DNA from: an uncultured Nitrososphaerota archaeon
Lineage (GTDB): Archaea; Thermoproteota; Nitrososphaeria; Nitrososphaerales; Nitrosopumilaceae
Direction of reading: 5' to 3'
Assembly: GCA_963824385.1 (NCBI GenBank)
Contig: CAWGPD010000003.1
Coordinates: 32,001 to 96,000, forward strand
DNA: 64,000 nucleotides
Position 1 is the first letter of the stretch, and every line of letters begins with the position of its first letter. This document shows positions 36,001 to 39,000 of the stretch, piece after piece. The position numbers were made by a program.

Positions 36001-39000
36001 AGAACAAGTAATAGCTGGATTTTCAAAACTCAGTCCTGACATGATGCCACTTGGAATTTTAGCAGTAGGTATGTTCATAGCTGGATTTGGATTCAAAATT
36101 GGTCTAGTTCCATTCCACATGTGGTTACCTGACGCATACGAAGGTGCTCCACCTACAATTGCCGCATTACTTGCTGCTGGTACAAAGAAAGCTGGCTTTG
36201 CAGCAGTGTTAAGGGTAGTAATTATGGGCGCAATAGCACTAAATCTTCACTGGGCATTTGCACTTGCTATAATTGCTATTGTAACTATGACAGTAGGAAA
36301 TTTGGCTGCAATAAAACAGAGAAATCTCACAAGAATGCTTGCCTATTCCAGTATTGGTCAAGCCGGATATATTTTGATTGGTCTTAGTGTGGCACCAGTT
36401 TCACCAATTGGAATTCAAGCTGCATTATTCCATATCATGAATCACTCCGTAATGAAGGCCGCTGCATTCATTGCTGTTGCAGGGATAGTAACAACTCTTG
36501 GCGTAACTCACATTGAGAAAATTAAAGGTCTTGGCAAAAGAATGCCTATTACTGCACTTGGTCTTACGATATCATTACTAGCATTAGCTGGCGTACCTCC
36601 TCTTAATGGATTTTGGAGTAAACTGATGTTATTTGGATCAGCAATAGATGCAGGTCGCACTTTATCATGGGCCCCATATTTGGCCGTGGCAGGAGTTCTT
36701 AACAGTGCGCTTTCACTTGCTTACTATGGTTGGATAATAAGAAAAATGTATTTCGAAGAGGGAGAATCAAACAAGAGACTAAAAGAACCAAAATCCATAA
36801 TAGCAGTTATGATATTCTCAATTATATTTATGGTAGGAATTGGAGTATATCCAGATCCACTTATACAATTTGCAAAATCAGCTGTTCCTATTCTAAGCGG
36901 ATTGCCAGCTATACACTAAGCATAGTCAAGTCTAGAAGACTTTCCAACCTCATTCTTGCAGGACCGTCGTTAATTTTTCTTAATGCTAACTTTGCTTTAC
37001 TGGAATAATTCTTTAGCATTTCATCCATACGGTCAAATACGATTCGTGGATCAGAACTTTTCTTTATCAGTATATTAAATAATTTATCTTCGTTATTCCA
37101 ATCTTGTAAATCATCTCTAATCTGATATGCGATTCCCATATTCTTACCATATTCTGCAAATGCCATGATTTGTTCTTCATTACCTCCACCTAATATGGCT
37201 CCAATCTTTGCAGCTGCTTCAAATGCAGTAGCAGTTTTGTATTCCATGACCTTTACGTAATCATCAAAAGTAACATCATCACTGGTCTCTAGTCTAGTTT
37301 CAAGCATTTCTCCCTCACTCATCATCATTGCAGTAATTGCAAGCTCTCTTGCCATTCTTGCATTATCTAGACGAGATGATATGTTCAAAATCAAACCAAG
37401 AACAAAATCGCCAGTAATTATGCTTGTATTGTATCCATATTTTATGTGAAAAGGATCCTTTCTCCTTCTTAGAATTTCATTATCAATAATGTCATCATGA
37501 ATCACGGATTCTGTATGTAAAAATTCCACGGCACATGATGCAGTATATGCATTTTCATCACATTTTCCAATGCTTTCTGCTGCTAGGATGAGAATCAAAG
37601 GTCTTATCCTCTTTCCTCCTTCCAAAGCATACTGTAATGGTTCGAAGAATTCTGAGGCAGAATACAGTTCTAATTCATGCTTAATTGCATTATTGACTTT
37701 ACCGATGTATATTTCAAAGTCTTTTATGAGTGGATTTATCTCGAAATTCTTTCTATCCAAGAATTACACTAGCAATCGTAAATCACGGTTAGGATATTAA
37801 TGCTTTTGAGAGTGGTGCTCCAGCCGGGATTTTCATCATTAAGAATTTGAACCCGGGTCGGAGGATTGAAAGTCCCCCATGCTTGACCGGTCTACACCAC
37901 TGGAGCCCAAATTGCATCCTAATTGTTATCCATAAAATCCTTTTGCAGCCATTCAAAAGATTTTTTTATTACCCGAATTTGATAATAGCTATGAGTTCTA
38001 TTATTCAGAGAATTGACAAGATAATTGATGAACAGAGTTTGTTAAAGCACAAATTCTATGTCATGTGGAATGAAGGCAAATTATCAATGGAATCTCTTAG
38101 TGGCTATTCAAAGGAATACTTTCAATTAGTAAAAGCAGTTCCCTCATTTGTAGACAACGTTCTGGTGAAAAGCCCATCTGAAATTCAGAGTAAAATTGCT
38201 TCAAATAGAGATGAAGAATCTGAGCACATAGAACCATGGGTAAAATTTTCTAGTGCACTAGGCATATCACAAAATGAACTAAGAAATTATGCCGGTCTTG
38301 ATAAAACAAAACAAGCTATTTCAAATCTTTCATGTCTTATGAATTCCTTTGAGGGTGGAGCTGCCGCAATGTATGCTTTAGAGCAGGAAATTCCAAAAAT
38401 TAGTTTATCAAAGATAGATGGATTGAGAAAATTCTATGGTTTGTCAGAAGATGATGCAATAGAATATTTCAGACTTCACGCAGAAGCTGACATAAGACAC
38501 GCACTCTTTGGCGAAAAATCTTGGAAAAAACTTCTGCATCACAAGAGGATGATTTAGTAGAAACAGCCAACAAATCCTTAGCAGCTCAAAATCTATTGCT
38601 TGATAGCTGCTATGATGCATACTGTTAACTCTATACTATTTTATAGCGCATCTCAATTTGCTCTTTCGTAGGGCCCATAACTCAGCTTGGTAGAGTAACC
38701 GGCTCATAACCGGTGAGCCAAGGGATCGAAGCCCTTTGGGCCCACTATTTAGTTCCTTTTGTTGTTACACTGTATAGATTATGACCCTTTTTCTTCATTA
38801 GTAAAATGTTAATCTAGAATTAACAACCGATAACCATGATTTTTTAAATTTTCATTTTGATATACTAATTTTAAAATAAGCAGTAAATTATCTTCATTTG
38901 GCCGCAATGAAGAATCAGAGTTATAACTGAACTGATGATGTTAAGGCATTTGTCTGAGCTGCCTCTATCTTAGAAAGAATTTGATAAATTTTATACAAGA

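Follow-up and report, generated by a model that had tools for sequence, protein, structure and literature searches.

A CADD-like dimetal oxygenase of ammonia-oxidizing archaea as a predicted self-sacrificing p-aminobenzoate synthase

Results and discussion

We analyzed a 64,000-nucleotide stretch (the window; contig C3, positions 32001-96000) of the genome of an ammonia-oxidizing archaeon (AOA) and found in it a gene for a CADD-like protein that is real, intact and AOA-wide. Its residues, fold and distribution, together with a gap in the folate pathway, predict that the protein probably makes p-aminobenzoate (pABA) as a self-sacrificing synthase. The reference enzyme, CtCADD (CT610) of Chlamydia trachomatis (PDB 1rcw, 8va9, 8vag), is a Mn/Fe self-sacrificing pABA synthase. 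The first-pass annotation had proposed this role, and those same four lines of evidence support it well; the protein nevertheless lies outside the curated family TIGR04305 and its chemistry is inferred. The AOA enzyme is likely to work like CADD and NePabS of Nitrosomonas europaea, although by score cut-off and ligand spacing its sequence falls outside TIGR04305.

If the function holds, this would be the first self-sacrificing pABA synthase from an archaeon as far as literature searches reach. The earlier statement that searches had turned up no AOA report agrees with our own searches, which found no paper placing such an enzyme in archaea; the subscription literature may list archaeal homologs. 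The accessible parts of PMC4161248 and of the supplements of PMC9522330 and PMC11965152 hold no archaeal mention, PMC11965152 itself names bacterial hosts only, and no folate section was seen in the available portion of PMC7554672. The self-sacrificing chemistry itself is already known. What is gained is a named candidate for the pABA step of AOA, which probably explains how these abundant organisms synthesize folate without the textbook genes, and a correction of the common label "PqqC", which implies PQQ synthesis.

The CADD-like gene and its locus

The features of the locus, in window coordinates, are:

37991..38628, plus strand: gene for a heme-oxygenase-like dimetal oxygenase of CADD/NePabS-like type, 212 aa in its true length, predicted to be a self-sacrificing pABA synthase
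38503..38504, plus strand: site of a missing base (assembly error) that leads to a false stop at 38557; base present in 4/4 sequencing runs
37833..37905, minus strand: tRNA-Glu(TTC), divergent neighbor upstream of the CADD-like gene, found by ARAGORN at a relaxed threshold only
38671..38745, plus strand: tRNA with a CAT anticodon directly downstream of the CADD-like gene, an arrangement that recurs in most AOA loci
36909..37760, minus strand: polyprenyl (GGPP-type) synthase, not a folate gene, the commonest protein-coding neighbor of the CADD-like gene

The open reading frame first annotated at 37991..38557 is present on the plus strand (188 aa), and its early end, suspected to be a frameshift, is indeed an assembly error. 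Orthologs are 211-212 aa long, and their C-terminus is found in the window in a different frame that ends at 38628; the full gene (37991-38628) codes for 212 aa. Set against a congener sharing 94% identity across 12.5 kb, the window is one base short at 38504 and again at 44412; contigs of all four sequencing runs examined contain both bases, the former as an extra G after 38503. Three of these runs may represent the source sample, otherwise matching the gene letter for letter, and one is from a diverged strain. With the missing G found in 4/4 runs, the reading as a pseudogene is rejected. The same kind of split was seen in other genes of the source assembly.

In AOA loci the gene sits between tRNA genes. 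The folate gene neighborhood typical of TIGR04305 in Chlamydia is absent, as it is for NePabS: no folate gene lies near the CADD-like gene at any of 50 AOA loci (30 of them with only ~1.5 kb flanks). Among 80 distant loci, just 6 have a folate-type or chorismate neighbor.

Residues, fold and family models

The reported match of the gene (g00976) to CT610 at E 3e-29 was reproduced with the frame 37991-38557. CT610/CADD and 9pj4 (named 4-aminobenzoate synthase) are the strongest matches among solved structures, at E 3e-29 to 4e-29; the next ones are far weaker (BesC 1e-4, PqqC 3e-3). Pairwise alignment with CADD equates Y23 with Y27, Y39 with Y43, Y43 with Y47, W83 with W92, K141 with K152 and Y159 with Y170, and among the ligands H79 with H88, E131 with E142, H163 with H174, D167 with D178 and H170 with H181. 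Of the residue matches claimed at first, both Tyr, the Lys and five ligands stand; the equivalent of E81 is E76, the E75 of the pairwise alignment being wrong once chlamydial orthologs are co-aligned. The codons concerned are:

38057..38059, plus strand: Tyr23 (CADD Tyr27), predicted sacrificial aromatic donor; Tyr in 48/49 loci and 119/119 near homologs
38411..38413, plus strand: Lys141 (CADD Lys152), predicted amino donor; 49/49 loci and 119/119 near homologs
38216..38227, plus strand: ligand pair Glu76-x2-His79; E-x2-H in 49/49 AOA loci, four residues shorter than CADD E81-x6-H88
38381..38500, plus strand: ligands Glu131, His163, Asp167 and His170 with second-sphere Tyr159 (CADD Tyr170); each in 49/49 loci and 119/119 near homologs

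Twelve functional positions (the Tyr, the Lys, the relay Tyr/Tyr/Trp, the six ligands and Tyr159) are kept in 48-49 of the 49 AOA loci and in 119/119 near homologs, where the 49 are distinct genome loci after dropping one duplicate and the single exception at Tyr23 is a reading frame that starts after it. The AOA copies hence carry all six metal ligands of CADD/PabS enzymes, E81 being matched by E76, as well as the sacrificial Tyr27/Lys152 pair with the relay residues Y43, Y47 and W92. The E-x6-H spacing of CADD, which is not known to be essential, is absent from all 49 AOA loci; it occurs in 5/5 chlamydial rows, and 52/58 other rows have E-x6-H or longer. At the position of CADD Y141 the AOA copies have Leu, Phe or Tyr (15, 18 and 16 of 49).

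A structure model of the intact ortholog P0002, which stands in for the window protein (identical at 163 of the first 171 positions), reached pLDDT 97.9 and is closest to CADD (TM 0.92-0.93, rmsd 1.5 Å, Z 30.0, 30% identity). PqqC is the second fold match (Z 27.2), with a structural identity of 16% vs 31% to CADD. Because PqqC follows so closely in Z, the fold by itself does not decide identity; fold puts the protein in the superfamily, and residues put it with CADD.

TIGR04305 (fol_rel_CADD) has a curated cut-off of 200 bits. It matches in 229 of the 301 genomes of the class, always below the cut-off, with a best score of 192.9. The sub-cut-off score first noted for g00976 is therefore general, and the frameshift is rejected as its cause, since none of the 301 genomes passes and an intact 92%-identical ortholog scores 165.3. 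Public names of close relatives, which point to the genus Nitrosotalea, are PqqC (many), iron-containing redox enzyme and TenA-like; the suspicion that automatic annotations may already say CADD-family was not confirmed, as no CADD or pABA synthase name occurs among the matches listed.

Distribution and phylogeny

Within four families, 223 of 233 genomes were found to carry the CADD-like gene, mostly as one copy: 173/181 in the family of the source genome (f1), 9/9 in f2, 37/39 in f3 and 4/4 in f5. Occurrence in the source family is thus higher than the 82% of Nitrosopumilaceae given initially. No true ortholog was found in the remaining 68 genomes, where there are only 6 weak matches; with an AOA protein as query, nothing was found in 4 of these 6, and three weak matches in a non-AOA family (f7), when aligned, lack several ligands as well as the Tyr and the Lys. 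Of the 301 genomes, three are unpublished and were used for the distribution tallies only.

In a panel of 80 genomes, amoA is restricted to the same four families, and the source genome has it. The panel was hand-picked (the source genome and 33 further carriers, every one of the order's 13 negatives, genome G299 and 32 of the 64 genomes outside the order), so that its counts are not those of a random sample, and related genomes are not independent. Among the 10 negatives within the AOA families, seven are assemblies of 60-210 contigs and three are genomes of 0.8-0.9 Mb from one genus (g20); absence in the latter looks like real loss.

Trees were calculated with FastTree (SH-like support, midpoint-drawn). 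That of the CADD-like family omits 1 fragment, 9 chlamydial rows and 19 near-copies from Poribacteria; in it all 17 AOA rows group together (SH 95), their sister being Peribacteria (SH 99). Two Thermoplasmatota and a further archaeon also have CADD-type genes; these fall elsewhere in the tree, among bacteria. As such trees are midpoint-drawn, we claim no donor and no direction of transfer. The sister Peribacteria have FolP in 3/3 genomes and miss a chorismate enzyme in 2/3. One archaeal genome of 0.6 Mb (G429) has a CADD-type gene and no FolP match, which speaks against a pABA role.

The folate pathway

The initial inventory was confirmed: in the source genome, which is 86% complete, FolE, FolP and MptE are present, FolC and DHFR were not found, and there is one chorismate-binding gene. 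MptE is adjacent to FolP, which scores above its cut-off. FolE has queE-like and queC genes around it and is therefore not folate-specific evidence. On the side of folate use there are FolD, a PurN-type formyltransferase, a fragment of 5-formyl-THF cyclo-ligase and MetH. The lack of a DHFR match leaves a hole in the pathway; the single RibD_C gene adjoins an amidohydrolase gene and, as we infer, is probably a riboflavin reductase, not a folate reductase. RFAP synthase had no match either, and use of pABA for methanopterin was rejected on this ground, for the source genome only. The chorismate enzyme heads a trpE-G-D-C-B-A run; its scores, 319 bits with PabB-clade2 and 492 with TrpE-arch, are below cut-off for both models.

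In the panel, FolP and amoA accompany the CADD-like gene in all 34 carriers; FolC and a second chorismate enzyme occur in none of them, two chorismate matches in G241 being pieces of a single gene. Like hosts of CADD/PabS enzymes, the carriers have FolP without PabB, with at most one chorismate enzyme; one of them, G138, has no chorismate-binding match at all. Conversely, 28 of the 62 FolP-positive panel genomes are without a CADD-like gene and without a second chorismate enzyme. These include 18 non-AOA genomes from outside the four families and the three small g20 genomes, which have amoA. In this class pABA can therefore also be obtained by uptake or by another route. According to parts of PMC11897584, N. 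viennensis grows without vitamins and is inhibited by trimethoprim only in vitamin-free medium, which fits de novo folate synthesis and names no enzyme.

Part of the above can be read in other ways. The AOA branch might be a dimetal oxygenase whose substrate or role has shifted (towards a different aromatic product, or towards oxidant or metal handling tied to ammonia oxidation), with pABA coming from elsewhere. The separate branch with its ligand loop four residues shorter, the scores below the TIGR04305 cut-off, a closer match to amoA than to FolP, the absent folate neighbors and the fact that Lys141 also aligns with a Lys of BesC would all suit such a change. We nevertheless consider it unlikely, given that Tyr23 and the relay residues are invariant in AOA but missing from weak non-AOA homologs and from the BesC alignment; in CADD the sacrificial Tyr is 14 Å from the metals, and NePabS is likewise unclustered (both from passages of PMC11965152).

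More improbable still is a supply of pABA by TrpE/TrpG moonlighting as ADC synthase together with a class IV aminotransferase, or by a non-chorismate archaeal route, with the CADD-like gene auxiliary at most. The position of the chorismate gene at the head of the trp run, the case of G138, where a chorismate-binding match is missing although FolP and the CADD-like gene are present, and the near-universal retention of the CADD-like gene in AOA argue against it, even though FolP-positive relatives do exist without CADD-like gene or PabB, TrpE and PabB are hard to separate (compare the two scores of the source gene), and a methanogen route is listed among the references of PMC8305020. As to PqqC making PQQ, many public records carry the name PqqC or pyrroloquinoline-quinone synthase, PqqC is the second-best fold match, and PQQ-dependent dehydrogenases occur in AOA (part of PMC7554672). 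This identity is, however, largely refuted and to us highly implausible: TIGR02111 gives 28 bits vs a cut-off of 240, structural identity is about half that to CADD, and PqqB is above its cut-off in 0/56 genomes, with one weak match, a weak control in that no control genome passes either.

The second CofE paralog

Both CofE-family genes of the source genome match PF01996. As first noted, g01711 is the closer CofE and passes the CofE cut-off, which g02050 does not. The latter is:

G000 (source genome), contig C4, 529118-529885: second CofE paralog g02050, candidate glutamate ligase

The reported hit of g02050 to TIGR04132 exists at 105 bits (83-128 in 9 orthologs), but the cut-off is 350, the score on CofE is higher (167.7) and g01711 matches the same model (75.5); with both paralogs far below the cut-off, TIGR04132 is uninformative as to FolC2. 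A motif derived here, and not taken from a published criterion, separates the groups in a 100-row alignment: D-S-x3-P-x-R-x-G in 50/50 rows of the paralog, D-S-x3-P-x-[RK]-x-G in 18/18 rows of bacterial FolC2 (taken from CADD-folK-folP clusters and chlamydiae) and D-T-x-G-R in 31/31 CofE-type rows, as also in the solved A. fulgidus-type CofE. Five columns are shared by paralog and FolC2, and one by CofE and FolC2. In the unrooted tree CofE is split from the rest at 100; a group uniting the paralog and bacterial FolC2 has no support.

Of the 80 genomes, 64 have CofD, often encoded beside the CofE-type copy, which tracks it. The paralog persists where cofD is missing (7 of 16 checked in the tree), though FolP too is missing from most of those genomes. 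Copy counts had suggested that the second CofE copy tracks FolP, an idea we rejected, the variable copy being the CofE-type one that follows cofD. g02050 is probably not the main F420 ligase. Retention in the absence of cofD is also the logic by which CT611 was identified (passages of PMC1971073).

The FolC2 role first ascribed to g02050 is backed by the shared motif and by its retention without cofD, and is weakened by the paralog's presence in genomes without FolP or FolD and its coexistence with FolC in G164. g02050 is the best candidate for the missing folate glutamate ligase, at about even odds; we give equal weight to its extending the F420 tail or acting as ligase on a different pterin or cofactor. 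In favor of these other roles, CofE models give the paralog higher scores than TIGR04132 does, 4 of 9 orthologs pass the CofE cut-off, it is the only family member in FolP-less genomes of two families (f8 and f10), FolD is present in 0/32 genomes outside the order, no CofE-family gene occurs in 20 folP neighborhoods, the clade with bacterial FolC2 lacks support, and in two genomes (G120, G171) the paralog is 6-8 kb from cofD. The folate ligase is favored by the FolC2-type motif, uniform in the paralog vs the CofE-type signature, by the paralog's staying in cofD-less genomes and by the rarity of FolC, which was found in 2/80 panel genomes, neither amoA-positive; one of these, G029, has FolC in addition to a bacterial folP-folK-folA run and no clear paralog.

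Predicted mechanism and cofactor

Chemistry and metal are transferred to the AOA enzyme from CADD and NePabS (passages of PMC11965152, PMC9522330 and PMC13108848). A soluble heme-oxygenase-like dimetal oxygenase working like these two would activate O2 at the two-metal site formed by E76, H79, E131, H163, D167 and H170, and a radical relay through Y159, W83, Y43 and Y39 would reach Y23. The side chain of Tyr23 would then be severed from the backbone by Calpha-Cbeta cleavage, oxidized to a carboxylate and aminated by Lys141, in a single turnover yielding at most one pABA per subunit. FolP would couple this pABA to the pterin from FolE and MptE, and the resulting folate would serve FolD, the PurN-type formyltransferase, 5-formyl-THF cyclo-ligase and MetH. 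In NePabS, Y25, Y41 and K159 are essential, and F177Y alone shifts preference to Mn/Fe (passages of PMC11965152); since AOA have an invariant Tyr159 at this Y170/F177 position, a Mn/Fe rather than an Fe/Fe cofactor is predicted by analogy.

The name "Chlamydia route" given at first to AOA folate synthesis would apply to two steps at most, the pterin branch being archaeal (FolE, MptE), whereas that of Chlamydia consists of RibA/TrpF and FolB/FolK (part of PMC4161248). The lineage may have acquired the CADD-like gene near the node at which amoA appeared. Going further, we tentatively suggest, as a scenario that more probably fails than holds in full, that the AOA ancestor gained together with AMO a short-loop Mn/Fe self-sacrificing pABA synthase, which made folate supply O2-dependent; that the old archaeal CofE paralog acts as the real pteroate glutamate ligase and formed the pool that gave rise to bacterial FolC2; that a further reductase completes the route; and that the small g20 AOA are pABA auxotrophs.

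Comparison with known systems

The AOA protein shares with CtCADD the fold (TM 0.93, Z 30), the six ligands and the equivalents of Y27, Y43, Y47, W92, K152 and Y170, and both kinds of host have FolP without PabB. It differs in being only ~30% identical, in its E-x2-H pair and in the variable Y141 position, and its gene lies outside a folate operon, scores below the TIGR04305 cut-off and is combined with an archaeal pterin branch. NePabS (NE1434, Fe/Fe; passages of PMC11965152) resembles it in belonging to a free-living ammonia oxidizer, in lying outside a folate cluster and in having the same sacrificial residues, compared by the numbering of that paper via CADD; the two part in the second sphere, where NePabS has two Phe and AOA retain Tyr at the Y170/F177 position. 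PqqC, TenA, UndA and BesC have the same helical-bundle fold (TM 0.74-0.86), but identities to them are 12-20% and the AOA protein is far below their curated cut-offs. The paralog g02050, finally, is like FolC2/CT611 (TIGR04132, COG1478; part of PMC1971073) in its CofE family, its host without FolC and its D-S-x3-P-x-R/K-x-G motif, and unlike it in scoring 105 vs 350 bits, in the absence of fol clustering and of a supported joint clade, and in a host that also makes F420.

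Genomic context and assembly of the own genome

The CADD-like gene, encoding a predicted self-sacrificing pABA synthase, has a neighbour that stays close to it in 20 of 52 loci, and the C-terminal part of this 362-aa protein weakly matches LarA-family nickel-pincer racemases. Further downstream, a base that is present in all four of the sequencing runs compared with the window is missing from the assembly at window positions 44411-44412, the second such deletion, and the loss shortens an ABC-ATPase ORF that we take to be ABCE1/RLI-like.

40278-41366, plus strand: 362-aa protein
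44406-45893, minus strand: ABC-ATPase ORF, 495 aa

Genes resembling leuC, cofE, guaB and trpB appear to be split in this assembly too. On another contig, folE is flanked by a queE-like radical SAM gene on one side and by queC on the other (L283:4668-6907, G000:C2), so it has a role in 7-deazaguanine synthesis as well.

Folate genes in related genomes

No CADD-like gene was found in three small (0.8-0.9 Mb), amoA-positive genomes of genus g20 (G217, G255 and G265), which retain FolP, FolD and both CofE paralogues; judged from gene content, these organisms are predicted to be pABA auxotrophs. FolC is found in two genomes. G029 has it together with a folP-folK-folA run of bacterial type (L101, L110), and no clear second CofE paralogue was found there. 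The complete genome G164 has no FolP; its FolC lies in a neighbourhood of purine genes (L286) and, with folD and 5-formyl-THF cyclo-ligase, makes up a salvage set.

Several Nitrososphaeria other than AOA add about 95-160 aa at the C-terminus of FolP. This extension, which has no Pfam match, is a candidate either for the reduction step that the pathway lacks or for another pterin function.

Extended FolP (locus coordinates):
L086:4138-5517
L087:4538-5809
L088:3801-5153
L089:4775-5953
L102:4382-5626
L103:3985-5247

CADD-type genes outside AOA

In the alignment and tree, CADD-type genes of two Thermoplasmatota and one other archaeon keep every key residue and form branches separate from AOA.

L168:4980-5657
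L169
L183:3676-4383

FolP was not found in the 0.6 Mb genome of L183. Members of a Poribacteria/Armatimonadota branch (L205, L214, L236) retain the Tyr, the Lys and the E-x2-H spacing, and in the alignment their last His ligand is replaced by Glu. Among known structures, PDB 9pj4 (267 residues), named 4-aminobenzoate synthase, is distinct from CtCADD.
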